From positions 118,280 to 182,279 of IMG/VR virus record IMGVR_UViG_3300047160_018755: a stretch of 64,000 nucleotides of DNA; one strand, 5' to 3'. The stretch is from a virus. The notes under the pieces were generated by a model. It did not search any database. It had not been told where the DNA came from and was given only the letters and a program-made list of their open reading frames with translations. The stretch's first letter is position 1. Every line of letters begins with the position of its first letter. Shown here piece after piece: positions 1 to 23,478 of this stretch. The translations under genes and the position numbers were made by a program.

Positions 1-985
1 CGCAGTGCGGGCAGGCATCTTCCGACTTCGCCATCGCTTGCTTGATGACGTCGGGCTCGTCGTCCATCGGAGGACCATCGCCCATCACTTCCTTGCCGAG
101 GAGCACGACGCCCTGGACGAGGCCGATGATGGCCGCGTACGCATCGGGAGCGTACTGCTGGAGACGCTGGATGTCGGGCAGCTGCTTGCGGATGTTCGTG
201 AGCGCGTCCGTGACCTTCTTCTTGACGGACTCGGTCTGCTTCTGACCGTCGCCCGCAGCCTGCTCGTCCTGCTTGCTGGAGTCCTCGGCCGCGTCATGGA
301 GCTGCGACTCCATGTCCTGGTTCATGTTCTCCATGTCGCCCGCGGCGTGAGTCATCTCGGGCGAGGCCGGCTTGGGATCGTCACCCAGAACATCGCCCAC
401 ATGCTTCATGTCGGTGAAGCCCGGGTCGTGCTGGACAGCGAAGCCCGCGTTGGGACCGGAGAGCTTCGCCGTGTTGTGCTCCAGGACTTTCTGCGTGTCC
501 TTGCCGCCGGCCGCCTTGTGCTCTGGCGGCTTGGGCGTGTCGGCCTTGGCGAGGTACTCGTCCGTCAGCTTCTCCTGCTCGGACTTGGGGGCGTCGACCG
601 CGCGCTGGTACTCGGCCGCCATCGCGTCTTGGTCCCACACCAAAATCTGGTTGCCGCCGCGGAGCTTTGCGACCACGAGGGCCTTGGCGGAGTCGGACAT
701 CTGCATGCCCACGCCCACGGAGACGGTGGCGCCCACCAGGTTCGAGTACTGCTTCGCGATCGAGGGCATGTCGGCCAGCTTGCTGGCGTCGACCACGATG
801 CGACCCTCGTCGCCACCCATCTCGATCACCGAGCCGCCGTTGTTCACGGCGAAGCTCTTCCACAGCTCGTTGCCGGCGTTGATGGCCTGGTCGACTCGAC
901 GAACCTCACCCACGTCGTTCGCGAGCACTGCTCGCCCGACGCGGCGGCCGATCTTGTCGCCGTCCCAGCAAACGAAAACGTCCAT
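1..985 (-). CDS. mCpol (minimal CRISPR polymerase, GGDEF-like palm) domain protein with C-terminal inner-head-like region; runs off the window edge
   Basis: Hand translation from ATG 985 is open to base 1: MDVFVCWDGDKIGRRVGRAVLAND...EMGGDEGRIVV...ATVSVGVG...AKALVVAKLRGGNQILVWD. This fits the mCpol pattern (DGDxIG, GGDE, TVSVGxG, AKxxGxN). LAKA at 542-553, MAKS at 23-34. Absent from the ORF track. Confidence 0.75.
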   Translation of the reverse strand, partial: MDVFVCWDGDKIGRRVGRAVLANDVGEVRRVDQAINAGNELWKSFAVNNGGSVIEMGGDEGRIVVDASKLADMPSIAKQYSNLVGATVSVGVGMQMSDSAKALVVAKLRGGNQILVWDQDAMAAEYQRAVDAPKSEQEKLTDEYLAKADTPKPPEHKAAGGKDTQKVLEHNTAKLSGPNAGFAVQHDPGFTDMKHVGDVLGDDPKPASPEMTHAAGDMENMNQDMESQLHDAAEDSSKQDEQAAGDGQKQTESVKKKVTDALTNIRKQLPDIQRLQQYAPDAYAAIIGLVQGVVLLGKEVMGDGPPMDDEPDVIKQAMAKSEDACPHC

Positions 986-991
986 GTCCCT

Positions 992-998
992 AAGATTA
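992..998 (-). promoter_or_regulatory. late-type promoter motif TAATCTT
   Basis: TAATCT lies exactly 7 nt before ATG 985 and overlaps the stop codon of the upstream gene. Confidence 0.6.
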
Positions 999-1382
999 CG
1001 CCCGGTAGTGCTTGCAGGCCGTATTGCTGCACTCGATGGTTCGGAAGAGAATGAAGGCGTTTCCCCCACAAACGAGGCACGTGTGCGGGTACCTGGACGA
1101 CTTCTGCTTCTGCTCTTCGTCCACCAAGATCGCAGCCACGCAGGTGTAGTGCCACGTCCCTTGACGGAAGCCCGCGGTCATGGTAAGGTGATGGGCTTGA
1201 GGATCGACAGTGTAGGTCGGCTTCCAGGCGCACTCGATGACGATCTGGGCCATGTCGTAGTAGTAGCCGACCACCCGTCCAAGCTTCTTCTCCCCGCCAG
1301 GCTCCTCCCGGAACCACACGACGTACCCCGCCATCTTGTCGGCACGGTTGCGCGCGAAGTTCTTGAAGTCGATCGACGGCAC
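996..1382 (-). CDS. hypothetical protein with C-terminal CxxC...CxxxxC zinc ribbon
   Basis: GTG at 1382, 7 nt after GAATCT; the longer ORF-track start overlaps the dNMP kinase gene antisense. Confidence 0.6.
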   Translation of the reverse strand: MPSIDFKNFARNRADKMAGYVVWFREEPGGEKKLGRVVGYYYDMAQIVIECAWKPTYTVDPQAHHLTMTAGFRQGTWHYTCVAAILVDEEQKQKSSRYPHTCLVCGGNAFILFRTIECSNTACKHYRA

Positions 1383-1400
1383 TCTTAATAGATTCCTGCT

Positions 1401-1412
1401 GATTCGATAGAA
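1401..1412 (+). promoter_or_regulatory. GATTCGATAGAA motif (phage middle-type promoter candidate)
   Basis: Exact copy, intergenic, upstream of the dNMP kinase/ligase operon. Confidence 0.7.
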
Positions 1413-1431
1413 ATGGCCCGGAGGGATTACC

Positions 1432-2205
1432 ATGGGTTCAACACCGATTTTGATCGTCAGTGGCAAGGCCGGTTCGGGCAAAGACACGGTCGCCGCGTTC
1501 ATCGCGGAGAAGTACAACGGCGTCTGCATCGCGCAGGCAGATCCGATGAAACGCCTGGCTGGAGCGCTCTTCGGGTTCACCGAGACCCAGCTCTGGGGAC
1601 CGAGCGAATGCCGGAACGCGGCCACCAAGTGCACCCCCGTCAACCCCGACGCCATGGACACCGTCCAGCTCGCTCGGGACTTCTGCGAGGAGATGGGGCT
1701 CGGCAACGGATGGGAGGCGCGCAAGCTGCTCGACTGGTACGAGGGCCAGTTCGCCGAGTACCTGAAGAACGATGTTATCGCGCCGCGGACCGTGCTCCAG
1801 ACCATGGGCACCGAATGGGGCCGCGAGATCAAGCCGTCGATGTGGATCGAGAAGGCCGTCGGAAACGCCCGCAAGCTGGTCGAGGGTGGTTTCGGCTACG
1901 CCCGCGGCGTCGGGCTGCGGCACGACAAGGACAAGTCCTTCGACTACGCCATCATCACGGACGGCCGGTTCCGGAACGAGATGCTGGCCGTGCGCTTCCT
2001 GGGCGGCGCGGCGCTGCGCGTCATCCGCCCCTCCAAGGCGGCTCAGACCGTGGGCATCGCAGGCCACCGGAGCGAGAAGGAGCTTGACACGATCCCCGAA
2101 CACTTCTACAGTGGGACCATCATGAACGACTCCACCTTCGACGAGCTGTACGAGCGCGTCATGGACGAGATGGAGTTCCACTACTTCGACACCCGCGCAC
2201 GGTAA
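1432..2205 (+). CDS. deoxynucleoside monophosphate kinase (T4 gp1-like)
   Basis: P-loop GKAGSGKDT, ADPMK, R..LQTMGTEWGR, IITDGRFRNE; GGAGG RBS. Confidence 0.85.
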   Translation: MGSTPILIVSGKAGSGKDTVAAFIAEKYNGVCIAQADPMKRLAGALFGFTETQLWGPSECRNAATKCTPVNPDAMDTVQLARDFCEEMGLGNGWEARKLLDWYEGQFAEYLKNDVIAPRTVLQTMGTEWGREIKPSMWIEKAVGNARKLVEGGFGYARGVGLRHDKDKSFDYAIITDGRFRNEMLAVRFLGGAALRVIRPSKAAQTVGIAGHRSEKELDTIPEHFYSGTIMNDSTFDELYERVMDEMEFHYFDTRAR

Positions 2206-2209
2206 ACCC

Positions 2210-3385
2210 ATGAAAAACTTCCCCACACTGTACCAGAAGACCAACGCCGGGGCGATCCAGCAATGGACCATCTCGGTCGAGGGCACGACCATCAAGACCG
2301 TGCACGGCCAGGTGGGAGGCAAGCTCCAGGAGGCCCTCGACACCATCAAGGAGGGCAAGAACATCGGGCAGTCGAACGAGACGACGCCCGAGATGCAGGC
2401 CGAGCGCGAGGCGAAGGCGAAGTGGACGAAACAGCTCAAGAAGGGCTACGTCGACACGATCGCCGCCGCTGAGGCCGGCGAGGTCGACGCCATCATCGAG
2501 GGCGGCCTCCCGCCCATGCTGTCGCCGAACAAGTCGCACCCCAAGGACGACCTGCTCGCCAAGACCGCGAAGTTCCCGGCCTACGGCCAGCCGAAGCTGG
2601 ACGGCATGCGCTGCATCGCCATCATCGAGGGCGGCAACGCCACCGTCTGGAGCCGCACGCGCAAGCGCATCCCCACGATCCCGCACATCGTCGATGCTCT
2701 CGCCAAGATGTTCCCGACCGAGCAGCGTGTTGTGCTCGACGGCGAGCTGTACAACCACCAGTACAAGGACCACTTCGAGGATCTGATGTCGATCCTACGC
2801 GGCGACGGGCCGGACCCCGAGGGCGAGTACCTCAACGCCCAGTTCCACGTCTACGACTGTCCCGAGCGCTTCGTGCGGGCGTCGCAGCACACGCAGGACG
2901 CGCCGTTCGAGCACCGCAACCGTGCCGTCAGCGCGATGCTCGGCGGCCTCGACCCCCAGTCGCCCATCAAGCGCGTCGAGACGGTCGCCGTCGAGACCAT
3001 GCAGCAGCTGCTCCTGTTCTACGAGGAGTGTCTGACCCGCGGCTACGAGGGCTCGATGTACCGCTCTCCCGAGGGCAAATACGAGGCCGACAAGCGCTCG
3101 AAGTTCCTGCTCAAGATGAAGGAGTTCATCGACCAGGAGTTCCCGATCGTCGGCGCCAACACCGGCCGCGGGAAGGACGCGGACGTGGTGACCACCTTCG
3201 ACGTGCAGCTCCCGAACGGCAAGGTCATGCCGGTGCGCTCGCCAGGGACCTACGCCAAGAAGCGCGAGTTTCTGAAGAAGCCCCAGCTGTGGCAGGGGAA
3301 GCAGCTCACCGTGAACTTCAAGCGGTGGACCGCCGACGGGATGCTCTACATCCCGACCGGGAAGGGGATCCGAGACTACGAGTAA
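2210..3385 (+). CDS. ATP-dependent DNA ligase
   Basis: Motif I QPKLDGMRC, LDGELY, FHVYD, YEGSMYR, KRSKFLLKMKE, OB-fold tail. Confidence 0.9.
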   Translation: MKNFPTLYQKTNAGAIQQWTISVEGTTIKTVHGQVGGKLQEALDTIKEGKNIGQSNETTPEMQAEREAKAKWTKQLKKGYVDTIAAAEAGEVDAIIEGGLPPMLSPNKSHPKDDLLAKTAKFPAYGQPKLDGMRCIAIIEGGNATVWSRTRKRIPTIPHIVDALAKMFPTEQRVVLDGELYNHQYKDHFEDLMSILRGDGPDPEGEYLNAQFHVYDCPERFVRASQHTQDAPFEHRNRAVSAMLGGLDPQSPIKRVETVAVETMQQLLLFYEECLTRGYEGSMYRSPEGKYEADKRSKFLLKMKEFIDQEFPIVGANTGRGKDADVVTTFDVQLPNGKVMPVRSPGTYAKKREFLKKPQLWQGKQLTVNFKRWTADGMLYIPTGKGIRDYE

Positions 3386-3399
3386 CCAAGGAGGCCTGC

Positions 3400-4113: not shown

Positions 4114-4189
4114 GCAGCTCCGCGATCTCGGCCGGCGTTCCTTCGATCTCGTACTCGGCGTACGAGCCCGGGTTCATCTTGAGCTTCAC
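3827..4189 (-). CDS. hypothetical protein (120 aa, Cys-containing)
   Basis: GTG start overlaps the TGA of the upstream gene (GTGA coupling); typical codon usage. Confidence 0.55.
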   Translation of the reverse strand: MKLKMNPGSYAEYEIEGTPAEIAELLRALGKEPPAVFQWGPVSVPTVWTFPDVCPLDGAAHRYPAVWNGLNPPPCEKCGQAPPNLIATWTYTEVVTNPAMPLPTTTQTIVGLPFAPYLDP

Positions 4190-4662: not shown

Positions 4663-5655
4663 TTACTTGCGCCCCACAGCTTCTAGGAAGGTTACGACCG
4701 TCTCCCGATCCCAATCCTCACCGAGGTGAAGCTCACTGTACTCCGGATGGTCGGTGACGTCAACTGACTTGGCGAGCGCTCGGAAGCAGAGGCACCCGAC
4801 GAACTTGTGGTCCGCGTTGAACTGGCGCATCGAGCACACCGGGCACGCCCGCTCCTGCTCCGAGCGCGTGAGCTTCACGGTCGACGACGTGACGGGCTTC
4901 GCTGGCTTCGCGCCAGGCGAGGCAGCCATCTTCGGGAGCTTCTGCTGCGTGGTGGGCGCAGCTGACGTCGCCGTCGGAGCTACAGGCGCTGCGGGAGCGA
5001 CGGGACCGGCGGTCTTGCCGCTGCCCTCGCCCATCGCCTTCTTCTCCAGCTCCTGCTTCACGACCCGAAGGAGCGCCTTCGGATGCTTCAGGTGACTCTT
5101 GTGCTCAGGACAGGCGACGTAGCCGGTCTCCTTCACGTTCTTCGGATCGTAGTGGGTCGCCGGCTTGTCGCAGAAGTCACACTCGTGAGGAAGGTCCGAC
5201 GGGGGCGTCTCTCCTGATCCATCGCTGAGCTGCGCCTTGACCAGACTCTCGCCAACGAGGTGCGCCTTCGCCATCAGATCGATGGACTTGCCGAGACGCT
5301 GTAGCTCGGTATTGCGGCCGTTGCTGAACAACAGCGAGTCGAGACCCATCGCCGTCGACAACGCGCCAGCGACGTGGAAGATCGACTGCTCCTCGAACTT
5401 GTACATGTCCTCGCCGAGGGTGACATTGCCCGTGAAGCCCTTCTCCGACTTCGCGTAGCTCAGACTGCACTCGCCAAAGCCTGGGACGGTTCCGGCGTAC
5501 GCTGGAACGGCCTCCAGCATCGCGAGGATGGTGCGCGGCACGATCATCTGCGCGAGGTACTCGGAGCGACCTGCGGCTTTCGCAAGGGCGAGAGCTGCGT
5601 CAGCGCCAAGAACGCCGATCAGAAACTGTGCACGGTTGAAAGACATCTGCTTCAC
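4663..5655 (-). CDS. putative head-associated protein with two Zn-binding motifs and many xxK[AS] motifs
   Basis: LAKA, YAKS, LGKS, MAKA, LVKA, LAKS; CxxC..C..H and CPVC..CLC; exact start (TTG 5658, GTG 5655 or ATG 5646) uncertain. Confidence 0.6.
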   Translation of the reverse strand: MKQMSFNRAQFLIGVLGADAALALAKAAGRSEYLAQMIVPRTILAMLEAVPAYAGTVPGFGECSLSYAKSEKGFTGNVTLGEDMYKFEEQSIFHVAGALSTAMGLDSLLFSNGRNTELQRLGKSIDLMAKAHLVGESLVKAQLSDGSGETPPSDLPHECDFCDKPATHYDPKNVKETGYVACPEHKSHLKHPKALLRVVKQELEKKAMGEGSGKTAGPVAPAAPVAPTATSAAPTTQQKLPKMAASPGAKPAKPVTSSTVKLTRSEQERACPVCSMRQFNADHKFVGCLCFRALAKSVDVTDHPEYSELHLGEDWDRETVVTFLEAVGRK

Positions 5656-5657
5656 CA

Positions 5658-5664
5658 AAGATTA
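5658..5664 (-). promoter_or_regulatory. late-type motif TAATCTT
   Basis: Overlaps the stop of 5662-6489, directly before the next gene. Confidence 0.5.
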
Positions 5665-6489: not shown

Positions 6490-6495
6490 GGTCCG

Positions 6496-6801
6496 TTACT
6501 TGCGACCCTTGTTGAAGGCGTCGGTGATGGCGTCGTACTTCGGGACGATGTTCTGGAAGGTCGAGGGATCGACCCAGTCCGACTTCGCGAGCGTGGTCAG
6601 CTTGATGCTGGGCTCGCGCTTCTTGGCGAGGTAGCGGGCGACTGCGCGGTGAGGGCCGACTCCGAGGTAGTCGATCTTCGGTCCGCGGACGGAGCAGACG
6701 ATGTGGAGGCCTCCCTTGAGGCCAAGCTCCATGACGGGGTTCCCATCGCTGGTCGAGCCGATTCGCTCTTTGTAATCGATCTCTTGGGGCTGAATCTGCA
6801 T
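6496..6801 (-). CDS. small putative head protein
   Basis: TAATCT 7 nt upstream of ATG; LAKS motif. Confidence 0.6.
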   Translation of the reverse strand: MQIQPQEIDYKERIGSTSDGNPVMELGLKGGLHIVCSVRGPKIDYLGVGPHRAVARYLAKKREPSIKLTTLAKSDWVDPSTFQNIVPKYDAITDAFNKGRK

Positions 6802-6807
6802 ACCCTA

Positions 6808-8110: not shown

Positions 8111-8117
8111 AAGATTA
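8111..8117 (-). promoter_or_regulatory. late-type motif TAATCTT
   Basis: Overlaps the stop of 8115-11282, upstream of the lipoprotein gene. Confidence 0.5.
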
Positions 8118-11100
8118 GGTCGTTACCCACAACGAGTTGATGATCAAATCGAGGGGCTCGTTGCCGAGGCGGACAGACACCTTCTGCAAGCGATCCATCG
8201 TGGGAATCGTGTTGATTCCGTAGCGCTGGCAGATGAGGCGCACGTCACCCGGAACGATTTTCCCAAACCAAGTCTTCAGCTCCTCAGCAACAGACGCCGG
8301 CACCCGCGGCAACGACTTGAGCTTCGTTGCGGTGTCGAGCTGGTGGAAGTTCTCGTCGAGGCACCACGCGCGCAGGTAGTACGGCACGAACGAGTTGCCG
8401 TCGTGGCCAGGATCGAAGCTCGGGCCGGCGAAGGCCGAGCCGTGATCGATGAGCTGCACGTCACCCTTCGGGTCGACCATCACGTTCTGGCCGTGCGAGT
8501 CCGGGTTGCCGAGGATGTAGTCGATCACGGCCCACTTGTGGACCAGACCCTCGTGCAGGTACTTGTGCAGGACGCTGCGAGCAGTGCCCGGCTCCTTGCG
8601 CTCCATCTCGTCGAGCGTCTTGAAGTCGAGAGCGAGCAGGTGGAGCGCGGAGTACATCTTATCGTCGATGATGACAAGCTCCGCGCGCGGGTACCACTTG
8701 CCGATCTCCCACTGCTTCGCGATGTGGTAGAACGCGGCCTCGCGAGCGTTGGGGTTCGACGGGTCCTCCTTCGAGCCTGCGGCTCCGCCAGCTCCACCGC
8801 TGCCGGACTTGAGCAACAGCGTCGTCTTCGTCTGCTCATCGTAGGCGATGAACGATCCCTTCGAGTGCTTGCCGCCGAGCGCGACCGGGAACACGAAGTG
8901 CGTCTTGAACGCACGCTCGATCATTCGCGCCACATCCTCACCCTCAAGATGCGCGGTCACGACCTTCGAAGCGGTCGGCGTCGGCTCCATGATCGGATCC
9001 GACTTCGTCAGCCCGCAGATGGCGTGCAGGGCCTTCAGGTTCTCTTCGCTGCACGGCAGGCCGTACGCCTGGAGCGCAGCACGATCCACGTCACCATCCT
9101 CGAAGTAGAGGGCCTGGCGCATCGACTCGTCCGAGATGAGCGCTCCGTTGGCGAGGAACTTGGCTGCCTTGAATGCGCGGTGGTTCGCCGGCTCGAAGCC
9201 GAGCTGCATGGTCACGATCGGATGCTTCGCCACGCCCTCCATCGGAGCCGAGGCGGCCGGGGTGAGCAGATCGAGTGCCTTCGAGAGCATCTTCTGGAGG
9301 TGCTGCGGGCCGAAGGCGGGGTTCGACATCACGCCGGCACGAAGGAGCGTGTCCGGGTGCAGGGCGTGGGTCGCCTCGTCAGCCAGCGTCGGAGACACGC
9401 TCTTGTTGCGCAGGAGCGCCCCGATGAGGCCCGGCGCGGCCGAGGTCGGCAGCAGCTGGGCCTTGGGGAGCAGGTCCTTGAAGATCTCGGCCAGAGCCGG
9501 CGTCGACAGACCTTGGTTTGACTCCAAGGCGCGCTCCGCGAGCGCCACCACGTGGGGCTCGCCGCGGTCGGCAGCGCGCTGGACGAGGGCCCGGAGGGAG
9601 CCGTAGGGCAGCTCCAGGTGCTCCACAGCGCGCGAGCCGAGGTCTCCTGACCCGCCGCCAGGGACCGTCAGGGCCGTCTTCAGGGCGTGATCCAAGACAT
9701 CCGCGGCGGCCCTCTTGTGGCTCAGAATCGCGATTCGCGAATCGTGGACGACATCCGGGTCCATGTACATGGAGCGAAGGAGCCCTTCGGGCGCCTCTGG
9801 ATGAGCCGCGATCTGGGCGACGGTCGCCGCGTAGCAGGCGGGGCCGCACATGCGCGCGGCGCGCGCGAGCGCGGTGAAGTGGTAGGGCTGGAGCTTCCCG
9901 GGCTGGCCCAGGAAGAAGTCCTTCTGGGCCTGCGGGTAGGCGCCGTTCTTGCCGACCACCGCCTCCATCAAGCTCAGCGACTGGGAGGGCCCGAAGAGCG
10001 GGTGGTTGATGGCGGCCTGGTAGATGGACGGGTCAGGATCGAGGGCGGCCTGGAAGAGGTGCTCGGGACGGACCGTGTCGAGCTTGAGGGCCATGCCGCG
10101 CTCGATCGGGTCCGGGTTGTCAAGCATGCGGAAGACCTCGTCCTCCGCCTTCGCAAGATGCGGCAGATGGGTACCGACCATGGCGGCCTGGTCGACATGC
10201 TCGCTGGGCAGCTCGTATGCGTCGAGCTTGCCGCCACCCTCGGCCTTCGCCGCGTGGTACTTGTGGTTGCCGTCGACGACCTCGTAGAGCCCCGTCGAGT
10301 TCCGCTTCACTACGAGGGGTGGGAGTTTCCCCTCCTTGCGGTACATCTTGCGGTAGAGGTCGTAGCGGGACTTGTTCTTGACGTCGTTCTTCGGGACGAG
10401 CTTGTCGGTCGTCACCGTGATCGGCTTGATGGTCGGGCCGTAGTGGTCCTTCAACGCGGACACGTAGCCGGCGTCGTAGTTGGGGCGGTCCGGGTGCTGG
10501 ATCGAGGGGATGGAAATGCGGCTCGTGCCCCAGTCGTCCGAGTGCCAGACCTTGGGCTCCTTCTTTTCGAGCGTGTCCCAGTCCTCGGACTTCTGGACCT
10601 TGAAGATCTGGCGCAGGAGGTTCGTCGAATCCTTCGGGCCATGGAGGTGGTTGTAGACCTTCGGCGGAAGGCCTTCCTCGACGTCGATCCACTCCCACTC
10701 AGAGACCTCGTCATCGGGATCGTTCTTCGGATGCGGAGAGCCGGACACGTACGCGCTGAAGCAGTACGCCTCGGTGCCGTCGGGGAGCGTGTAGTTCTTG
10801 AGGTGCGACAGGCTCACCGCATGTAGCCCCGTCTCCTCGTACAGCTCGCGGGTCGCGCACTGCTCGGGAGACTCGCCCTCCTCGAAGTGGCCGGCGGGGA
10901 GCGTGTAGAAGTCGTTGTCGTTGCGCTTGCCGACGAGCAGCTGCCCCTCGCCGTTGTAGCAGGTGATGATCGCGACGCGATTGGCGTGGTTGCGGAACTT
11001 GTTCTCCAGCTCCTTCGCCTCGTCGTGTGCCTGCTCGTACTGCTCGTGCTTGTCGTGCATGAGGTGCGCTTCGCGGCACTCGTGCAGAGCAACGAGCGGG

Positions 11101-13525: not shown

Positions 13526-13705
13526 TCAGTCTGTGGCGCGACCGTTGCGGTACTCGCTCTCCCACTTCTCCTCGGCATCCTCGTCACGCTCGGGCATCTC
13601 GGTCCCCAGGAGCTTGTCCAGCTCCTTCTCGAACTTCTTGCGGGGCTCGCCGCGCTCCATCGCAGCCGCGATCTCTGCGAGGCGCTTCTTGATGTCGGTG
13701 CTCAT
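13526..13705 (-). CDS. small hypothetical protein
   Basis: ATGA overlap with the thyX stop. Confidence 0.6.
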   Translation of the reverse strand: MSTDIKKRLAEIAAAMERGEPRKKFEKELDKLLGTEMPERDEDAEEKWESEYRNGRATD

Positions 13706-14980: not shown

Positions 14981-15273
14981 GACGGCTCCTTTTCGATCTT
15001 GGTGGCCGCGATCTTCAGTCCCAGCTGCTTTTCCAGCTCCTGCACGGCCACGCCCACCGCGGCGGCCTGGTAGTGCACCGTCACCAGCTCCATGAGCTGC
15101 GCGTAGGTGGTGTCCGAGATCACCGCGACCTGCGTCGCGGCTGTCGTGAGCGCAGCGAGCGCCAGAAGAGGGCACAGAGGATGTTCCTGGAAGACCGCCA
15201 AGGCCTCCACGCCAAGCTTCGTGGCCAGCTCCTTGACCTTCTCCGCGTCCTCGGGCGTGAAGAGGCTCGACAT
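14977..15273 (-). CDS. hypothetical protein
   Basis: Coupled start/stop overlaps. Confidence 0.55.
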   Translation of the reverse strand: MSSLFTPEDAEKVKELATKLGVEALAVFQEHPLCPLLALAALTTAATQVAVISDTTYAQLMELVTVHYQAAAVGVAVQELEKQLGLKIAATKIEKEPS

Positions 15274-15710
15274 CAGCCGAGGCCTCGAAAAAGACGATAG
15301 GCGCCCGGATCTCCACCTTGGAGTGGCGCCAAGAAGACCTGCTTCAGGACCGAGCTGGTGATGTGGCTGCCGACCCGCTCCAGGACGTACCCCGAAGCGC
15401 TCCAGCTGACGTACTGGAGGCCGATCTCCTCGATCAGGGGTAGGAGAGGCGATGTCGTCAAACGCGCGCTGGCGCGCACGAAGGGCCGCCCCTCGGCGAC
15501 GTCCAGGAGGGCCCAGTCACTGTCCTGGAAGCAGTCCTTGGGCCCCATGACCTTGCGGACGTCGACGATGTAGCCCAGCAGGTGGTCGATGTTGTTGTCG
15601 AGCCACCCCACGGTCCCGTGCGCGAGCTTGGAGATGTCCGCACCCGCGATGGAGATCGTCTCCTCGGGGTTGTAGTCTCCCTCGACTAGGATGATGCCGT
15701 GGACCTGCAC
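15273..15710 (-). CDS. hypothetical protein
   Basis: First gene after the GATTCGATAGAA motif. Confidence 0.6.
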   Translation of the reverse strand: MQVHGIILVEGDYNPEETISIAGADISKLAHGTVGWLDNNIDHLLGYIVDVRKVMGPKDCFQDSDWALLDVAEGRPFVRASARLTTSPLLPLIEEIGLQYVSWSASGYVLERVGSHITSSVLKQVFLAPLQGGDPGAYRLFRGLG

Positions 15711-15802: not shown

Positions 15803-17200
15803 TTACTGGAGGTTGTCGACGAGGACGTTCTTGCGGGGCTGCATCACGGCCAGCGTGCAGAAGCGGAAGTGCGCCTCGGGCTGGCTGAGGTCCGTGACGG
15901 CGAGCTTGAGGCGGCTGTAGGGAGCCAGCTCCTTCATCGCCATCGTGTCGCCCTCGATCAGGAAGCCCGTGACGAATCCCGGGATCTTGTTGCCGAGGTC
16001 CGTGAAGGTCACGGCCGCGCCCGCGTTCGCCGCGATGCGACCGATGAACTTCTCCGTGCCCGCCGCGCCGCCCGCGAGAGTGCGGTAGACGTTGAAGTAG
16101 CGGGTCGTGGAGACCGGCGTGAGGGAGATGGTGACCTTGTCACCCGCGTTGGTGATCGTCACCGACTGAGTCGCGCAGGCCACGCCCTCGCCCAGCTCGC
16201 TGCACGCCGTCGCCTTGTAGATGTAGACGTCGTTCGCGAGGAAGTTCGAGACCGCGTTCGCGTCGGTCGCGCCCGTCGGAGCACCCATCGTCGGGGCCGA
16301 GGGAGCGGTCGAGCGCGCCGGAGCGGGCTTGGCCTTGCCACGGAGGAACATGCTGCCCTCGATCTCGACCGTGCCGCCCGAGACCCACTGCTTGCGGAGG
16401 TCGCCGCCCGTCGCGCCCTGCGGGCTGCCCGCGAGGATGATCTTCTCCTTGCCGAAGACGATCTTGTTGTACGCGCTCAGGACCTTCGGGTCGACGACGA
16501 GCTTGTCGGCGTCACCGAAGTTGAGGGCCGAGCGAACGCTCGCGTCCTCGACGATGTCCTGCGTGAGGGGACCGCCGCCCGCGATCACGACCGTGTCGTC
16601 CGAGCCGAACTCGGCGAACATGAGGTCGCGCGCCTGGCGCTGGTTGTCCGACTGACGGACCTGGAGATCCAGGCCGTGCATGTTCGGGAGCGGAGCCACC
16701 GAGAGCGGGTTGCCGTCGAAGACGCCCGCGTTCGAGAAGTCCGCGAGGCCGCGGAACAGGTCGAACTCGATGTCGCCCGCGATCTTCTTCGCCGCGTTGG
16801 CCGCCTCGCGCTCCTCCGCCTTCACGCCGTCGACCGTGGTCACCATGTTGGCGACGATGGTCACGCGACGCGTGTGCGAGTAGAACGCCATCGGGACGGT
16901 CACACGGACGTAGTCCGCGTTCTCTTCCTGGCCGATCGCGCCTTCGAGCTGGGCCGAGCCGCCGAAGATGCCGTAGCTCAGCTGACGATCGAACTGGGCG
17001 AGCGTCGACTTGCACGACTCGACCTTGACCATCTTCTGGAGCTTGATGTGGGACTCGTCGAAGGTCACGACCTGCATGACGTTGGACAGGTCCTCCGTCT
17101 GGAGGGCCGCGCCTTGAACGAGCGTGCTCGGAGCGGCGTTGTAGTTGCCGGCCTCCAAGGCCTTGGTGAGGGACTGGAGTTCAGCGATCAGATCGGACAT
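15803..17200 (-). CDS. major capsid protein (SPO1/Twort-like HK97 fold with Ig-like insertion)
   Basis: Short propeptide ending LTKA, GAALQTEDL, STLAQFDRQLSYG, IEFDLFRG, YVFNVYR-type insertion; position after protease and scaffold. Confidence 0.85.
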   Translation of the reverse strand: MSDLIAELQSLTKALEAGNYNAAPSTLVQGAALQTEDLSNVMQVVTFDESHIKLQKMVKVESCKSTLAQFDRQLSYGIFGGSAQLEGAIGQEENADYVRVTVPMAFYSHTRRVTIVANMVTTVDGVKAEEREAANAAKKIAGDIEFDLFRGLADFSNAGVFDGNPLSVAPLPNMHGLDLQVRQSDNQRQARDLMFAEFGSDDTVVIAGGGPLTQDIVEDASVRSALNFGDADKLVVDPKVLSAYNKIVFGKEKIILAGSPQGATGGDLRKQWVSGGTVEIEGSMFLRGKAKPAPARSTAPSAPTMGAPTGATDANAVSNFLANDVYIYKATACSELGEGVACATQSVTITNAGDKVTISLTPVSTTRYFNVYRTLAGGAAGTEKFIGRIAANAGAAVTFTDLGNKIPGFVTGFLIEGDTMAMKELAPYSRLKLAVTDLSQPEAHFRFCTLAVMQPRKNVLVDNLQ

Positions 17201-17242
17201 TTGAGTTTCTCCTGGTTCTTTCGGAAATCTGGGGTGGAAGGG

Positions 17243-18217
17243 TTACTTGAGCAGGTGGGCGATCTGGTCGACCTTCACCTTGCCGAGGTCGAAATCGACG
17301 ACGAGCGTCTTCTCCGACTTGGACAGGGTTCCGGCAACGACCTTCTCACGGAGCTTCGCGCGAACCTGCTCGCGCGACATCTGGGTCACATCGGCGGCGG
17401 GGGCCGCGGCGGGGATGTCGGCGGCGAACTTCACCGACTTGCGGAGGGGAGCCTCCAGGACGTGCTTGACGGCCTTGACGAGCGGGAGGACCGCCTCCTG
17501 CACCTTCGCGTTGATCTCGGCCGTGATCTCGGCCTCGCTCTTGTGGAGCGACTCGCCACCCTTGACCTTCGAGAGGTCGCCGTTGGCCTTGGGATCGTTG
17601 CTCATGCCCGACTCCGCCTTCAGCGCGGGCGCCGGAGCGCTCGCATCCGCGGGGGGAGCCGACGCCGCCGGGGGCGGCGCGCCAGCAGAGGCATCCGGGC
17701 CCGCCGGAGGCGGGGCGCCAGCGCCAGCGTCCGCACCAGCACCCGCGAGGGTCTGCATGAGGACCTGCTTGAGGCACATGTAGTGCAGCTTCTGGTCTTC
17801 CGGCGAGAGCTTCGAGTACTCCGCCATCAGAGCCTGCGGGTCGATCGGACCCTGGTCGGCCGCGGGGTCACCGCTGCCGTCCGGAGACGCCGAAGCGTCC
17901 GGAGACGCCGAGCCAGCGTCCGCCGGGGGCGGAGCCGAACCGTCGTCACCCGCGGGCGACGCCGAAGCGTCGGCCGGAGGGCCGTCCGAACCCGTGGCGT
18001 CGGGCGAAGCCGAGGCCGCATCCGGAGACGCCGAGGCCGCGGAGGTGTTGTCCCCCGTGGGATCGGTGTCCGACGCGTCCGACTTGTCGTCCGCCGGGGT
18101 GTCCTCGCCGGGGCGAGCCTTGGCGAGTTCCGACTTCGCGAGATTGCCCAGCTCCTTCTCGACCTCCGCGAGGATGGCCGAGAGCTGGCTCTCGTCGATC
18201 TGTGCAGTGTTGGACAT
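17243..18217 (-). CDS. capsid scaffold-like protein
   Basis: Directly upstream of MCP; acidic Ala/Pro/Ser repeats (DASASP); LAKS, LAKA, LHKS, LVKA, LRKS, LSKS. Confidence 0.6.
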   Translation of the reverse strand: MSNTAQIDESQLSAILAEVEKELGNLAKSELAKARPGEDTPADDKSDASDTDPTGDNTSAASASPDAASASPDATGSDGPPADASASPAGDDGSAPPPADAGSASPDASASPDGSGDPAADQGPIDPQALMAEYSKLSPEDQKLHYMCLKQVLMQTLAGAGADAGAGAPPPAGPDASAGAPPPAASAPPADASAPAPALKAESGMSNDPKANGDLSKVKGGESLHKSEAEITAEINAKVQEAVLPLVKAVKHVLEAPLRKSVKFAADIPAAAPAADVTQMSREQVRAKLREKVVAGTLSKSEKTLVVDFDLGKVKVDQIAHLLK

Positions 18218-18253
18218 GATGTGTTCCTTCCCGTGCTTGGGTGTCGAGGCGAC

Positions 18254-18733: not shown

Positions 18734-18827
18734 TGAAATTTTCTCCTGTGGGATCTTGGTGCGGGACCGATCCCGCCGTCTTCCATGAGATTGCCGCGCA
18801 CCCGTAACAAAAATCGTGAAAGAGCCC

Positions 18828-18834
18828 TAATCTT
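18828..18834 (+). promoter_or_regulatory. late-type motif TAATCTT
   Basis: Upstream of ATG 18849. Confidence 0.45.
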
Positions 18835-18848
18835 CCAGGGGTTAGCCC

Positions 18849-19235
18849 ATGCCTAACCTGTACGTCTGCTCGGGTTGCAAAAACCCTAAGCCTCGCGGGG
18901 AGTTCCACGAGGCTCATTACACGGACCGCAAGCGCGTCGTGACCTCCCGTTGCCGCGAGTGCCGATCCGAGGACTACTTCACCGACCGTTACGAAACGGT
19001 GTGCGGGCAGTGCCGGCGCCATCGACCGCTGAACCAGAACCGCGTGTGCAAGAAGTGCAACGAGGACTCCGGCCTGCGCGAGTGCCGCGGGGCGTGCGGA
19101 TCGCTCCTACCGGCGCTGCTGTCGTTCGACGGCAAGCGCACGACGTGCAAGTCGTGCCGGAAGCTTAGGCAGCTGCCTTCGGCGTCTTCGGCGGCTTCGG
19201 CAGCGCAGTCGCGACGGTCGGCGATGCCGGCGTAA
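18849..19235 (+). CDS. tandem zinc-finger protein with no recognisable nuclease domain
   Basis: Six CxxC/CxxxC pairs; repeats resemble the N-terminal finger of the endonuclease at 12727. Confidence 0.6.
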   Translation: MPNLYVCSGCKNPKPRGEFHEAHYTDRKRVVTSRCRECRSEDYFTDRYETVCGQCRRHRPLNQNRVCKKCNEDSGLRECRGACGSLLPALLSFDGKRTTCKSCRKLRQLPSASSAASAAQSRRSAMPA

Positions 19236-22200
19236 CGGTCTGGTGGACCGCGTGCTGGCCAGCATCGTGGATCGGCAGCGGACCTTCATGACCCGGCATC
19301 AGTGAGTGGGCGAGGTTCGGCACCTGGCCGACCTTGTACTGGCGCTTGTCGCCCATGATGCCGAGCTTCTTGCCCATCTGGCGCATCGCTGAGGGCTGCG
19401 CGACCTTCTGCTCCTTCGCCTTGTAGAGCGCGAGGTCGGCGGACGCGGGGTCCGGGCCGAAGCCGAAGGACATGCTCATCTTGTGCTGGCCGCCGAGAGG
19501 GGCGAGCGAGTTGAGCTTGTCGCTCAGCGCACGGTGGAACTGCGCCGCGTGCTCGTGGCTCGGGACGTGCGCGATGAATTCGTCGCCGCCGTTGCGCCAG
19601 AGCTTGCCGTTCTCCTTGCCCACGGTCTCGTCCATCGCCTCACGAGCGGCGTTGCCGAAGGCCTTGATGGCGGAGTCGCCGCCCGCGTGGCCGAACTTCT
19701 CGTTGATCGCGCGGAAGTCGTTGCCGTCCATCTGAATGTACGCGCCGGTCTTGCCGCCCGGGTTCTGCTTCAGGTGGTCGGTGAACGCGAGCTTGTTGCC
19801 GAGCCCCGGAACCATGGGGTCCGAGAAGAAGTGCTTCGTGGCGATGTCGCCCGAGCCCTTCGGCATGGCGCCACGAGCTTCCGCATCGCGGATGTGGCGC
19901 ACCAGCTCGTGCGGCTCCATCTCCGCCGGATCCGCCTTCATGAGCGACTCGAACGCGGCCTCCGCCTTCATGACGGAGTCGAACTGGCTCTTCTGCTTCG
20001 CCTTGTACGAGATCTTGGCGGCACCGGACTTGTGGTTTTCGAGGATCTTCTGCACCTCGGGCTGCGACAGCTTCTCGCCATCGAGCAGGTAGTGCCCGTC
20101 CTTCACTTCGAGGGTGTGCGGCTTGTCGTGGCCGGCACGCTTGTACTCGAAGACCGACGGCGGACGCGGGAGACGTGCGTTGTTCTGCATCTTCTCCGGG
20201 TGCGCGTGCTCGCGGAACTTGTCGTTCTGACCGTCCATCGTCTCGACCTCGACACGGACGTGTGGAGACATCTTGAGTCCGTGCAGCTTCGTCAGGCCCT
20301 GGATGGTGAGCGGTCCCTCAGGCAGAGTCGCCCCGATGAGGCCGTGGTAGTCTTCGAGGTGGTGAACCTGGCCCTGGTGCAGGACGAAGCGGCCCGCGAG
20401 GTGCTCGGTGTTGCCGTGGTCCTTGTCCTTGAAGAACACGGAGTGCACAGTCGGCACGTTCGGGTCCGAAATCTTGGCGACCTGCATGTCGTGGACGTTC
20501 TTGCGCAGCTGGATGCCGAGGTTCTCGATCTGCATCGACTTCGCGAAGTCCGACAGGTCGTCGTGCTTCTCGCGGTACTCGGCCATCTCGTAGAGGTGTG
20601 GGACGATGTGCTGGTAGTACATCATCATCGCCGGGATCTCGCCGAACTCCTGCTGGTACGCGAGGAAGAGCGCGACGAGCTTGCCCATCATGTGCTCGTC
20701 CGGCTCCTTGTCGGAGAACGCGTTCTTCTTGAGCTGGGGCGCCTCGCTGCCGAACACGCGCTCCATCTGCTTCCACATGGCCGAGTGCGTGCTCAGCTCG
20801 TTCTGCGAGGCGGTCGTGTCGATGCCGCGGGCCTTCTCGTCACGGGGGATGGTCGCCCAGTGCAACCAGAAGCCCGGACCAACAGCGTCCTCGTTGTCCT
20901 TGAAGTGCTTGCCCGCCACCGGGTCCTGCGCGATCGAGCGCGGCGCCGGGTGGTTCTTGGCGTACCAGCGATCCATCGCCTCCAGGATGTGGTGGTTGCC
21001 GGCGCGCCACAGGCCTGTCTTCAGGTACTGGAGCGTGCGACCGTCGGTCGCGTTGTCCATCCCGAACATGTGGCGGATGTAGTGCGTGTCGTGCACGGCG
21101 GCGTTCGAGCCACCGGTCAACAGAAAGGCGTATCGTCCCGTCTTCGGGGCCAGCCCGGGGACAGGAGTGCCCTCGTACTTCGGGAACTTCTCGTGCAGAG
21201 CACGGTTCACGAAGGGAGAGAGCTTGTCTTGGAGGCCGGCGTCCGTCGCCTCCTGCTTGAACTTCGCGCGGTACCAGCGCTTGCCCGTCAGGCGCGAGGC
21301 GGAGTACTTCGCGATGCTGGGGTGCTCTTTGTACTCGTCCGGGTTGAAGTCGGTGTCGTCGTTGCCCGTGAGCATGCGCGGATCGAAGGGAAGCGGCGCA
21401 TCGTCATCGTCGTCAGCGCCCGGCTCACGCTCGGCCGGAGCCTGACCCTTCTTCGTGAACTTGCCAGCAGCGTTCGCCTCGTTCATCTTCTGGTCGACGT
21501 AGTTCTTGTGGTCGTCGGTCAGACCCGCGGCAGCCGCCTGCGCCTTCAGCTTCTTGCGGAAGGCGTTGCGCTGGTTCTTCCACTGGATCTCCTTCACCTT
21601 GTGCTGCATCAGCTCCGCAGTGGCGGCGCGTGCATCGGTGCCGTGCTTCTGGATCAGCTCCATCATCGTCGGGTGGAGCTTGTGGTACTGGGCGATGTTG
21701 TCGAACTTGTTGTTCGCCAGCATGAAGGACTTCACGTCACCGACCTTGCGGCGACCGCCTTTCTCGCTGTCGCTGCTCAGGAAGTTGCCCTTGTCGTTGG
21801 CATACTCCTCGGTGTCGTTCTTCGGGAGGTTGTTCGCCTTGTCGCGAGCCTTCCAGTCCTTGCGGAGCTTGCGAAACTCAGGGTCCGCCGGGTCGAGGCC
21901 ATGCTCCTGCCAGCTGTCGTAGAGGTGGCCCTCCATCAGCTGCTGGACGGAGACCGGCGTGTTCGGCGACATGGCCGACATGAGGTACGCGATCTTGACG
22001 ATGTCCGGCGGAAGCGTCTTCGCTTCGAGATTTTGCTTGTTGCGGACGAATCCAGGCAGAACCTTGCTGCGGATGAACTCCTTGATCTCGGGAGTCTCCA
22101 ACATCTTCGCGAATTCGGGGTTCGGACCGTTGTGCGGGATCTGATTCATGTCCGCACCTGGCGCCACGTGCAAAACGCCGTTGTGGTAGAAGGGCGAGAG

Positions 22201-23478
22201 CTTCGCGAGCGGGTGAGTCTTCTGCTCGAAGCCCGTGTCGGGGTTGTACATCGGGAAAGAGCCCTTGCGCGTGTGCAAGATGCCCTTTTGCTCGTCGAAC
22301 ACCCACTTGTTGGTCTTCACCTTCGGCGCAGCGACCGGAACGCCTCGAATCGAGGCCACGGCGAGCTTCACCGGGTTGTCATCGGGCTCCTCGGGCTTCG
22401 CAACCTTCGGCGCAGCGACCTTGCCGGTCTTTTTCGGAGTTTTTGCCGGTTTCGGAGCCGCGGAAACGGGCTTGGGCGCTGCCTTTTTCGGCGTCGCGGC
22501 CGGTTTCTTGCCGATCTTGGCTGCCGGTGTGGCCGAAGGCTCCTTTTTCGCGAGGTGCTGCTTCTTGACGTGGTAGTCCTCGACCACATCCGTGAAGTGA
22601 TCGATGAAATCGTCGCTCGCCTCGGGCATCAGCGTCTTCGCGAAGCCGCGGAACTCGCTGCGGTTGAAGACCTCCATGTAGCCGCCCTCGGAGAGCTTCT
22701 GGATCAGGTCTCCGGTCGTCCACTTCTTCGCCTTGCCGGGCTTCTTCGGGCCGAGATCTTCCTTCTGGAGAGCCGCGCCGCCTTCGAGAGCACTCGGGGC
22801 GGCCGAAGCGGTGCCCGCGGCGAGCGCCTTGCTCAGGTCGTCGACCATCGGGTCTCCGACCGTGCCCCACGAGCTGCCGAGGCGCTGGAACATCGGATCG
22901 GTCTCACTCTTCTCGGCGTCGGAGAAGTCGAGGAGGTCACGCACCTTCGTCTTGACGTGCTTCTTCTCGAATCCCTCGGGCGCGTTCGGATCTTCGATGA
23001 GTCCCGACACCGCCGTGCGGTTGCAGGGCTTCACGGTGACGGCCACGCGACGCACGACGGACTCCGCGAGGCGGTTGTCCTCCTTCTTGAGCGTCGCACC
23101 TTCGACCGAGTAGCGGCAGACGATGGGCTCGTTGTTCGCGGCGTGATCGCGGATGATGGCGGCGATGCGCTTCGCCTCTTCGTGGCCGGCGCCGTCATAC
23201 AGACGGCAGACGCCGTAGATGTACGGAAGTTTGATCTCGTCCCAGTAGCGCCGCTGGCGGTCGTTTTCGCAGTCGTCGCGCTTGTAGATCTTCTTCGCCT
23301 TGAGGACGATGCCGACCAGGGTGGTCGCGCTCTTGTCACCGGGGGTGTGCTCCCAGTTCAGAAGACAGGTGCCCTTCTCGACATCGGAAATGTCAGCGCC
23401 CGCGACGTCGAGGACTTCGCCCGAGGAATCGATGGCCTCGGAACCGAGGACACCGTCAATCATCATGCCGGTTGACAC
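19165..23478 (-). CDS. prohead protease fused to an HhH-GPD glycosylase-like domain and a C-terminal GGDEF diguanylate cyclase
   Basis: N-terminal DSSGEVL, LNWEH, YSVEG, TVKPCN (HK97-type protease); VPGLAPKTG...HDTHYIRH at 21061-21162; SDPMVPGLGNK, MDGNDFRAINEKFGHAGGD, RNGGDEF (19576-19590), SFG, ADLALYKAK. Confidence 0.8.
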   Translation of the reverse strand: MSTGMMIDGVLGSEAIDSSGEVLDVAGADISDVEKGTCLLNWEHTPGDKSATTLVGIVLKAKKIYKRDDCENDRQRRYWDEIKLPYIYGVCRLYDGAGHEEAKRIAAIIRDHAANNEPIVCRYSVEGATLKKEDNRLAESVVRRVAVTVKPCNRTAVSGLIEDPNAPEGFEKKHVKTKVRDLLDFSDAEKSETDPMFQRLGSSWGTVGDPMVDDLSKALAAGTASAAPSALEGGAALQKEDLGPKKPGKAKKWTTGDLIQKLSEGGYMEVFNRSEFRGFAKTLMPEASDDFIDHFTDVVEDYHVKKQHLAKKEPSATPAAKIGKKPAATPKKAAPKPVSAAPKPAKTPKKTGKVAAPKVAKPEEPDDNPVKLAVASIRGVPVAAPKVKTNKWVFDEQKGILHTRKGSFPMYNPDTGFEQKTHPLAKLSPFYHNGVLHVAPGADMNQIPHNGPNPEFAKMLETPEIKEFIRSKVLPGFVRNKQNLEAKTLPPDIVKIAYLMSAMSPNTPVSVQQLMEGHLYDSWQEHGLDPADPEFRKLRKDWKARDKANNLPKNDTEEYANDKGNFLSSDSEKGGRRKVGDVKSFMLANNKFDNIAQYHKLHPTMMELIQKHGTDARAATAELMQHKVKEIQWKNQRNAFRKKLKAQAAAAGLTDDHKNYVDQKMNEANAAGKFTKKGQAPAEREPGADDDDDAPLPFDPRMLTGNDDTDFNPDEYKEHPSIAKYSASRLTGKRWYRAKFKQEATDAGLQDKLSPFVNRALHEKFPKYEGTPVPGLAPKTGRYAFLLTGGSNAAVHDTHYIRHMFGMDNATDGRTLQYLKTGLWRAGNHHILEAMDRWYAKNHPAPRSIAQDPVAGKHFKDNEDAVGPGFWLHWATIPRDEKARGIDTTASQNELSTHSAMWKQMERVFGSEAPQLKKNAFSDKEPDEHMMGKLVALFLAYQQEFGEIPAMMMYYQHIVPHLYEMAEYREKHDDLSDFAKSMQIENLGIQLRKNVHDMQVAKISDPNVPTVHSVFFKDKDHGNTEHLAGRFVLHQGQVHHLEDYHGLIGATLPEGPLTIQGLTKLHGLKMSPHVRVEVETMDGQNDKFREHAHPEKMQNNARLPRPPSVFEYKRAGHDKPHTLEVKDGHYLLDGEKLSQPEVQKILENHKSGAAKISYKAKQKSQFDSVMKAEAAFESLMKADPAEMEPHELVRHIRDAEARGAMPKGSGDIATKHFFSDPMVPGLGNKLAFTDHLKQNPGGKTGAYIQMDGNDFRAINEKFGHAGGDSAIKAFGNAAREAMDETVGKENGKLWRNGGDEFIAHVPSHEHAAQFHRALSDKLNSLAPLGGQHKMSMSFGFGPDPASADLALYKAKEQKVAQPSAMRQMGKKLGIMGDKRQYKVGQVPNLAHSLMPGHEGPLPIHDAGQHAVHQTVTPASPTVATALPKPPKTPKAAA

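Follow-up and report, generated by a model that had tools for sequence, protein, structure and literature searches.

The window analysed here is a stretch of 64,000 nucleotides that forms the final 64 kb of a 182,279-bp record (IMG/VR virus record IMGVR_UViG_3300047160_018755, positions 118,280 to 182,279) of an uncultured Mx1-like myophage. The nearest cultured relative is the Myxococcus phage Mx1 (169.6 kb), whose late genes are syntenic with those of the window and whose major capsid protein (MCP) is 58% identical. The window carries a prohead protease gene, the genes of the MCP, the scaffold and the portal, and three genes for multidomain late proteins that contain predicted enzyme modules. 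A short motif centred on a lysine is found at the predicted maturation site of the MCP, is repeated in the scaffold and stands at the module junctions of the three multidomain proteins. We propose that this motif is very probably the site of the prohead protease of the phage, and that the three proteins are probably substrates which this protease cuts at their linkers.

Since the DNA contains 63% G+C, the open reading frames (ORFs) were chosen by their third-position G+C content (GC3). The late block is encoded on the minus strand and begins, in the order of transcription, with the terminase (27570-29537), a 330-amino acid (aa) ORF, the portal and a MuF-like protein, followed by a 1437-aa polyprotein, a 159-aa ORF, the scaffold and the MCP. 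After the MCP come small ORFs and ThyX, a 282-aa adaptor-like protein and a 1055-aa protein with a NUDIX domain, then other small ORFs, a 275-aa virion protein (phrog_1004) and ORFs of 331 and 158 aa. The block is interrupted by two plus-strand genes, coding for a deoxynucleoside monophosphate (dNMP) kinase and an ATP-dependent ligase, beyond which are found the mCpol protein and the genes leading towards the tail sheath. The protease gene sits between the portal and the scaffold/MCP genes, and the same placement is observed in Mx1 and in the Bacillus phage Nachito. The features considered below are as follows (window positions; a slash marks the predicted cut; AF2, AlphaFold2).

24411-26558, minus strand: portal (phrog_12), with motif copies near both ends (LVKS11, LAKS46 and LSKA665); 7 copies for 1.6 expected.
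19165-23478, minus strand: protease polyprotein of 1437 aa; ORF with a GC3 of 0.88 and a Pfam GGDEF match at residues 1225-1357.
22969-23478, minus strand: prohead protease domain, residues 1 to about 170, assigned from the AF2 model, Foldseek and alignment.
22753-22845, minus strand: putative LSK/A site (K217) and copy of the MCP N-arm, residues 212-242, assigned from the likeness to the MCP.
20497-20547, minus strand: junction A, with the candidate sites FAK/S (978-981) and LRK/N (991-994) between the middle region and a module of about 190 aa, assigned from conservation.
19933-19974, minus strand: junction B, with the candidate sites VMK/A (1169-1172) and LMK/A (1179-1182) ahead of the GGDEF domain, assigned from conservation and gene fission.
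19168-19932, minus strand: GGDEF nucleotide cyclase module, residues 1183-1437 (Pfam PF00990, 37.5 bits for a cutoff of 23.8).
17243-18217, minus strand: scaffold protein with six motif copies for 1.3 expected.
15803-17200, minus strand: MCP (phrog_752, E 3e-51).
17159-17170, minus strand: predicted MCP maturation site LTK/A, residues 11-14, assigned from the motif position.
8115-11282, minus strand: 1055-aa protein with NUDIX, ParB-like, helical-repeat, small helical and PI3/4-kinase-like domains, assigned from Pfam and AF2.
10587-10598, 10146-10157, 9276-9287 and 9000-9011, minus strand: candidate sites VQK/S, LAK/A, LSK/A and LTK/S of the NUDIX protein, respectively (conserved copies).
6496-6801, minus strand: 101-aa late protein with LAK/S at residue 71, candidate substrate (15 copies for 5.7 expected in 8 homologous ORFs).
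4663-5658, minus strand: 331-aa late protein with two Cys clusters, candidate substrate (5 copies for 1.2 expected; the Mx1 homologue has 7).
1-1069, minus strand: mCpol protein (Pfam), ORF of 452 codons, probably starting at Met29, that extends beyond the window as far as genome position 117990.
542-553 and 23-34, minus strand: candidate sites LAK/A after the mCpol domain and MAK/S before the Zn-ribbon tail, assigned from the motif.

The occurrences of the motif [LMVFI]xK[AS] were compared with those expected from shuffles that keep the composition of each protein. The head block (7,326 aa) contains 39 copies for 18.9 expected (Poisson p 3e-5), and the remaining 43,641 aa of the 182-kb genome contain 82 copies for 85.2 expected (Fisher p 7e-7 for the head block versus the rest). 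Beside the scaffold, the portal and the 331-aa protein, the main carriers are the NUDIX protein (6 copies for 2.6 expected) and the mCpol protein (4 for 1.4). With the narrower pattern [LM][ASTVGQ]K[AS], a variant picked after the data had been seen, the head block displays 20 copies for 3.3 expected and the other proteins 12 for 13.6. When all 20 residues were tried at position P1, lysine alone stood out in the head block (z 4.8, against 2.9 for arginine), and outside the head block lysine gave a z of -0.3. The same analysis of the first 84 kb of Mx1 revealed 52 copies in the head block for 22.7 expected; when an acidic residue was required at P2' or P3', these numbers became 23 for 5.3 in the head block and 6 for 7.0 in the rest. 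By pattern count the terminase, ThyX and the adaptor-like protein contain no copy, and the motif is not enriched among the relatives of three families of the block (p159, p282 and p275).

A preliminary description of this DNA had listed the copies of the motif and had suggested that they would be more frequent in head proteins than in the others, which is what the counts give. Every copy of that list was found again at its position, including one, five and one copies in the ORFs starting at 4186, 4663 and 6496, respectively; the portal gene lies just outside the range 1-23478 to which the description referred. Several copies were rejected as cut sites, being attributed to chance, lack of conservation or a position inside a fold: VLKA58 and LYKA1351 in the polyprotein, IYKA327 in the MCP, LPKA605 and LLKS823 in the NUDIX protein, and IFKA220, VFKS339 and IGKA517 in the core of the portal.

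A scan of IMG/VR with the MCP gave 70 loci with 43-70% MCP identity, each taken with flanks of 10 kb. In all 70 loci the MCP opens with a short leader whose last residues are h-x-K; the consensus [A/T]-LEAG-x-Y-N-A-A-P...GAALQ-x-ED comes next. The ORF in the scaffold position, present in 64 distinct loci, contains 481 motif copies in total for 86 expected, and 404 for 31 expected when the acidic extension is included. A logo built from every lysine of these scaffolds, with no prior motif, displays Leu or Met at P3, Ser or Ala at P1' and Glu at P2' ([LM]-x-K-[SA]-E). In the portal the terminal sites are present again in Mx1 and Nachito, and the enrichment among relatives is weaker (50 copies for 34 expected). 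On this point the comparison supports the preliminary description: the motif is a conserved, head-specific signal that is common to the MCP maturation site and the scaffold. It also appears at the module junctions of all three multidomain proteins, each listed junction site being either conserved or located at a point of gene fission.

The 1437-aa polyprotein is composed, in this order, of an assemblin-fold prohead protease, a copy of the MCP cut site and N-arm, a Lys/Pro-rich linker, a middle region, a module of about 190 aa and a GGDEF domain. The protease domain and the middle region (218-978) are recognized neither by Pfam nor by PHROGs. The first 250 residues were aligned with 45 relatives and folded with AF2, which gave a predicted local distance difference test score (pLDDT) above 90 over residues 1-170 and a low confidence over residues 171-250. 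In a Foldseek search of the PDB all hits with E <= 0.001 are herpesvirus assemblins, T4 gp21 (5jbl) being ranked 39; the template-modelling scores are modest (0.3-0.45). The residues His44 and Ser124 are invariant across the 46 sequences. The fold of the model therefore confirms the earlier assignment of this first module as a protease, presumably the capsid maturation protease. Behind it, residues 212-242 read VDDLSK/ALAAGTASAAPSALEGGAALQKEDL and share 61% identity over 31 aa with residues 8-38 of the MCP. This copy of the MCP site and N-arm is also found in Mx1 and in 104 of the 120 long relatives listed; in the AF2 model the segment around K217 has a pLDDT of about 50.

Used as query of the protein collection, the N-terminal part recovered 179 proteins of 790 to 2515 aa. 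Among the 120 relatives listed the protease is always N-terminal, and the C-terminal end is variable: about 50 end with the 190-aa module and the GGDEF domain, about 32 with a PI3/4-kinase-like domain and 37 with neither. The kinase-like domain is, depending on the phage, part of the protease polyprotein or of the NUDIX protein, or is encoded alone. The motif is found at junction A in 49 of 51 relatives, and the split ORFs of relatives begin just downstream of it; at junction B it is found in 38 of 51. In an alignment of 34 GGDEF-bearing members, where the mean column identity is 34%, K217 and K993 are invariant and K1181 nearly so. The full motif is conserved there at K217 in 31 sequences, at K918 in 23, at K980 in 18, at K993 in 28 and at K1181 in 22. 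At two of the aligned sites the polyprotein of the window has Asn at P1', which the pattern of the preliminary description had missed. In seven loci the 190-aa module is encoded together with the GGDEF domain by an ORF of its own. In Mx1 and in one other locus (L051) the region is divided into three ORFs, and the cyclase ORF starts exactly at the VMKA/LMKA point of the polyprotein. The Mx1 ORFs for the protease part, the 150-aa module and the cyclase abut (at 16721 and 17173 of locus L001): the stop of one ORF overlaps the start of the next by one base, an arrangement suggestive of translational coupling following a recent fission.

The sequence of the GGDEF module reads MDGNDFRAINEKFGHAGGD...GGDEF, with the motif intact and the substrate and metal residues DxxF...N..GH..GD present. 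A profile search of the PDB with the polyprotein matched only diguanylate cyclases, at the GGDEF part. The domain keeps what we take, from the PleD numbering, to be the guanine-reading Asn and Asp, and presumably lacks the RxxD inhibitory site; because of these two traits, its sequence points to an unregulated synthase of cyclic di-GMP (c-di-GMP). Since the PDB search matched only this part, the helix-hairpin-helix (HhH) and glycosylase module that had been announced upstream of it was dropped, Pfam giving no support for it either. In the middle region no family was recognized by Pfam, PHROGs or the PDB profile search; an Atlas lead to DUF7178 was not confirmed by Pfam on the 34 relatives. A low-complexity stretch rich in Lys, Pro and Ala (window 22300-22550, minus strand, residues about 310-390; PKKAAPKPVSAAPKPAKTPKK...) resembles the basic tails of histone H1 and could bind packaged DNA. 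The first 63 or so residues of a 145-aa ORF just downstream of the MCP (15273-15710, minus strand) can be aligned to the N-terminal end of the protease (69 alignment columns with 27.5% identity; E 9e-5, obtained with a small database), and the ORF may represent a truncated paralogue of it.

In the 1055-aa NUDIX protein, the NUDIX domain is recognized by PF00293 (E 1e-20) and its box Gx5Ex7REUxEExGU reads GHFEEGESPEQCATRELYEETGL. A Foldseek search with the whole model matched MutT, NUDT15 and RppH, and resolved only the NUDIX and helical-repeat parts. On isolated segments ParB_N reached 23 bits for a cutoff of 26.3, with a DGNHK motif, and the PI3/4-kinase profile reached 29.1 bits for a cutoff of 27.1 over only 40 profile positions, with the motifs GNPDSHGQN and IDHG. 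Of the enzyme domains named in the preliminary description, Pfam thus retains mCpol, NUDIX, GGDEF and the PI3/PI4-kinase-like stretch, leaves ParB_N under threshold and gives nothing for the HhH/glycosylase. The AF2 model (mean pLDDT 75.5) consists of an N-terminal alpha/beta part, the NUDIX domain (102-200), an alpha/beta domain in the ParB-like region (245-358), a helical repeat (382-673), a small helical domain (702-756) and a kinase-like domain (774-1055).

Twenty-six homologues of this protein were found, of which 17 were used in the alignment. The lysines of the four candidate sites are conserved as follows: K231 in 13 of 16 sequences, K378 in 14 of 16, K668 in 13 of 18 and K760 in 10 of 18. 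K231, K378 and K760 are located in segments with a pLDDT below 50, which comprise 13% of the residues (p 0.008 for three of the four sites); K668 is found where the final helix of the repeat domain stops. In the model of this protein, three of the four sites are thus in linkers and the fourth at the end of a domain. Of the two rejected copies, LPKA605 is not conserved and lies in a helix; LLKS823 lies in a strand, inside the invariant strand and Gly-rich loop of the kinase. In the relatives the motif flanks the NUDIX, ParB and kinase domains on both sides, and in their stand-alone ORFs it follows N-terminal leaders of 25-130 residues that resemble propeptides. In a more distant clade, whose protease and MCP genes are divergent, a free 130-aa NUDIX gene comes immediately after the protease gene (L015 4698-5108, L033 2192-2584, L037 6923-7315, L038 1185-1580, L039 3125-3520 and L042 6585-6977). 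The NUDIX domain is thus linked to the head module even outside the polyproteins.

The mCpol domain of the third multidomain protein is recognized by PF18182 (E 6e-13, 49.6 bits for a cutoff of 26.4), and the motifs WDGDKIG and GGDEG are present. The protein is collinear with a 468-aa late protein of Mx1 encoded between the neck genes and the sheath. Its adjacent genes are late genes with PHROG hits of unknown function or with none; judged by this context, the mCpol protein does not appear to be a member of a Panoptes system. Among 100 relatives, which contain 321 motif copies for 132 expected, many carry GNAT, ParB or other inserts between the conserved middle part and the Zn-ribbon tail. In 75 of 99 relatives a copy marks the edge of the mCpol domain on its C-terminal side, and the motif also flanks inserts such as GNAT and ParB.

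Other genes of the late block are of interest for comparison. ThyX (13702-14571, minus strand), the dNMP kinase (1432-2205, plus strand) and the ATP-dependent DNA ligase (2210-3385, plus strand) are embedded among the structural genes; in Mx1, ThyX and the kinase come directly after the MCP. None of the three is enriched in the motif, and they therefore serve as internal negative controls. A 292-aa ORF of high GC3 (996-1874, minus strand) is antisense to the Pfam-supported dNMP kinase gene; as it overlaps that gene, it was not retained and is probably a shadow ORF. The 250-aa protein encoded after the portal (23659-24411, minus strand) matches the C-terminal part of the portal family phrog_2662, has HPHCRC at its C-terminal end and resembles a minor head protein of the MuF type; no copy of the lysine motif is present in it.

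The reading that we favour, and which as a whole we consider fairly likely, is that the motif marks the sites of the prohead protease and that the three late polyproteins are cut into enzymes in the prohead. The protease would recognize [L/M/V]-x-K/[A/S], often followed by Glu or Asp, and would enter the prohead as the first module of the 1437-aa polyprotein, from which it would release itself at LSK/A (K217). The copy of the MCP site and N-arm may be a self-release site with the extended P' side of the main substrate, or a capsid-docking element, or both. Inside the prohead the protease would remove 13 residues from the capsid protein and cleave the scaffold at some six positions; it would probably shorten the portal at its ends, and it would cut the three multidomain proteins at their linkers. 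The modules set free would be the GGDEF cyclase, the NUDIX hydrolase, the ParB-like, helical-repeat and PI3/4-kinase-like domains and the mCpol cyclase. As the enzyme modules are joined by the same signal as the capsid maturation site, the head protease probably cuts them apart inside the capsid. The catalytic motifs are intact in the GGDEF domain, the NUDIX box, the catalytic loop of the kinase and the GGDEG of mCpol.

What would follow the cutting is graded lower. The folded fragments may be kept in the head and delivered to the host along with the DNA; this is plausible, if not quite probable, by analogy with T4 Alt and internal proteins (IPs), with the ejection proteins of phiKZ and SPN3US and with P1 DdrB. 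An effect of delivered enzymes on host nucleotide signalling or defence is more doubtful. Quite unlikely in our estimation, although the most far-reaching, is that the virion delivers active cyclic-nucleotide enzymes at DNA entry, as a counter-defence kit acting before transcription whose modules are swapped among Mx1-like phages. Under such a scheme the c-di-GMP synthase and the mCpol cyclase would supply or imitate second messengers of the host, a Panoptes-type guard might be kept silent, and the NUDIX, ParB-like and kinase modules would disarm signalling-based defences.

Several observations weigh against the cutting and packaging of these enzymes. Taken as a whole, the 1437-aa polyprotein is not enriched in the motif (6 copies for 4.8 expected), and in its alignment only the junction sites are conserved. 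Junctions A and B are placed from conservation, the modelling having covered residues 1-250. In Mx1 the GGDEF protein and the module of about 150 aa are separate ORFs with neither the motif nor an obvious targeting peptide, and the 130-aa NUDIX genes of the distant clade have no cut site outside their fold; such enzymes can therefore exist without being substrates of the protease. Sequence comparison found no capsid-targeting element or segment resembling the MCP N-arm in the NUDIX and mCpol proteins. A free GGDEF domain may dimerize poorly. A location in the head module does not prove packaging, since ThyX, the dNMP kinase and the ligase share the block, and no proteomics of Mx1-like phages was found in the literature searched.

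Some of these points would also fit an explanation in which the protease recognizes the motif and cuts the polyproteins, the products not being delivered: they would act in the late cell, or would be additional scaffold or core components that leave or are degraded around packaging. Fragments of scaffold and protease normally leave proheads, as in HK97 and T4. The Mx1 kinase, too, is a separate ORF, which contains two copies of the motif, beside the motif-free GGDEF protein and 150-aa module; the small NUDIX genes beside the protease gene have no site; and metabolic genes (ThyX, dNMP kinase) are present in the same operon. We nevertheless find this explanation rather unlikely. The freed modules, of 15-85 kDa and folded, are probably too large for the pores of the capsid, their catalytic motifs are intact, and it is hard to see why enzymes active in the producer cell should be cut apart. 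Moreover, the prohead protease has been detected in purified virions of a Twort-like phage, which has the same head family (PMC5618024).

Another explanation is that in the enzyme proteins the motif is a signature of linkers and helix ends, or a recombination joint, the true substrates being only the MCP and the scaffold. The motif is merely 4-5 residues long, some copies are inside folds, and module shuffling is extensive; conserved joints are known from polymorphic toxin cassettes (PMC5512222). However, the same preferences at P3, P1, P1' and P2' are found in scaffolds, which are not shuffled, and at the terminus of the MCP, the P1 lysine is invariant inside linkers that are otherwise variable, and elsewhere in the genome, other multidomain proteins included, the counts do not deviate from expectation. 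A peptide of four residues is also too short to guide DNA recombination, and we hold this explanation for very unlikely. Finally, an artefact of composition or alignment, with chance LxKA in helical head proteins rich in Ala, Lys and Leu, could be invoked because Ala, Lys, Glu and Leu abound in the scaffolds and portal tails and because the narrow variant of the motif was picked after the data had been seen. This was checked and is not supported: the shuffles keep the composition of each protein, the controls with Arg, Glu and other residues at P1 are flat, the sites are conserved in position and the result repeats in independent genomes. We regard such an artefact as extremely improbable, and retain cutting of the three polyproteins by the prohead protease as the preferred reading.

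If the fragments are packaged and injected, these phages, a large and diverse clade as yet uncultured, would possess an 'address and cut' code for head cargo that can be read, and the sequence would suffice to list the proteins that a phage injects. They would also provide the first example of cyclic-nucleotide synthases delivered by virions, acting on host signalling before phage gene expression, and would bear on the way large phages evade CBASS (cyclic oligonucleotide-based antiphage signalling), type III CRISPR and Panoptes-type immunity. An island of M. xanthus with CBASS and type III-B CRISPR stops phage Mx4 and not Mx1, for which the authors of that study suspect countermeasures (PMC11506125). 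As Mx1 grows on its host M. xanthus DK1050 and escapes this island, the idea is directly testable. Even if only the cutting is real, the MCP N-arm copy would offer a simple, conserved clue, in Herelleviridae too, to how the protease finds its substrates or is placed in the prohead.

The closest known head module is that of the Herelleviridae (SPO1/Twort-like phages), which have the same MCP family (phrog_752) and the same gene order (portal, protease, scaffold, MCP); the MCP identity to Bacillus, Lactobacillus and Aerococcus myophages is 22-26%. In the Bacillus phage Nachito, a member of this family, the MCP reads LSK/ALEAGY, the scaffold has six LxKS copies and the motif is found at both ends of the portal. 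Its 246-aa protease (L074 2419-3159) carries the tail MSK/SLEAGYATSP...GGGA, in which the cut site and N-arm of the MCP are repeated after the protease domain. As the same grammar is found in Nachito, the signal belongs to the whole SPO1/Twort-like head family, and the copy behind the protease looks like an old feature of the protease family, of which we found no description. The premise of the preliminary description that Twort- and K-like capsids are matured after a lysine fits these sequences; a search of the literature for the published cleavage bond of the Twort-like MCP gave no usable result. The Herelleviridae protease has about 250 aa, whereas here the protease heads polyproteins of 1,100-1,700 aa in which a GGDEF or a kinase-like module is included, and the site is also found in other late proteins with several enzymes, unlike in Herelleviridae.

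In T4 and in phiKZ/SPN3US a short repeated motif guides the head protease to the capsid protein, to the scaffold and to non-structural proteins that are packaged, all of which it cuts there; some of this packaged cargo is enzymatic and injected (PMC9026906, PMC10052503, PMC7411985). The protease fold, represented in T4 by gp21 (with IPI-III and Alt as cargo), and the use of one short motif on capsid, scaffold and cargo are shared with the window. In contrast, P1 is Glu in these phages and Lys here, and their cargo is cut at one propeptide whereas multi-enzyme chains with several internal joints are found here, one of them fused to the protease. Unlike these systems, the present one is known from sequences and has no defined capsid-targeting sequence.

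Herpesvirus pUL26 and gpO of phage P2 also have an N-terminal protease of assemblin fold, to which the Foldseek match points here, followed by a release site and a long C-terminal part. This part enters the procapsid with the protease. In both it is the scaffold, whereas here it is a conserved region with enzyme modules and the scaffold is a separate gene. As for the cyclases, the bacterial mCpol (OptS of Panoptes) makes cyclic nucleotides constitutively (PMC12657230, PMC12657218). The mCpol of Panoptes and the bacterial GGDEF cyclases share with the present modules a palm domain with intact catalytic motifs; in contrast to Panoptes, the modules are encoded by a phage, in late proteins of the virion module, with no recognized effector adjoining. 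No mention of a phage-encoded mCpol was found in the one Panoptes paper searched. Neither did we find a description of the mCpol family in a head-cargo setting, no search of PMC5512222 for mCpol having been made.

Finally, the polyvalent proteins described by Iyer, Burroughs, Anand, de Souza and Aravind in 2017 are multi-enzyme proteins predicted to be packaged and processed (PMC5512222). The domain list of that paper comprises GGDEF, DdrB-like ParB, protein kinases, GNAT and assemblin-like peptidases, and NUDIX is a neighbour or fusion partner of the InPase domain. With the processed cargo of T4, phiKZ and SPN3US, these proteins, and Nachito, which shares the cut-site grammar, the label of new system given by the preliminary description is too strong; what we did not find described in the literature is an N-terminal protease polyprotein with an MCP-site copy and a Lys joint code common to three cargo families. 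Like the polyvalent proteins, the late proteins studied here unite several unrelated enzyme domains in one chain and are shuffled among relatives. No cut-site grammar is given in PMC5512222 for the polyvalent proteins, whereas here the Lys motif marks every joint, and their assemblin-like peptidase is reported to be always C-terminal; in the present polyprotein the peptidase comes first, with a copy of the MCP site behind it.

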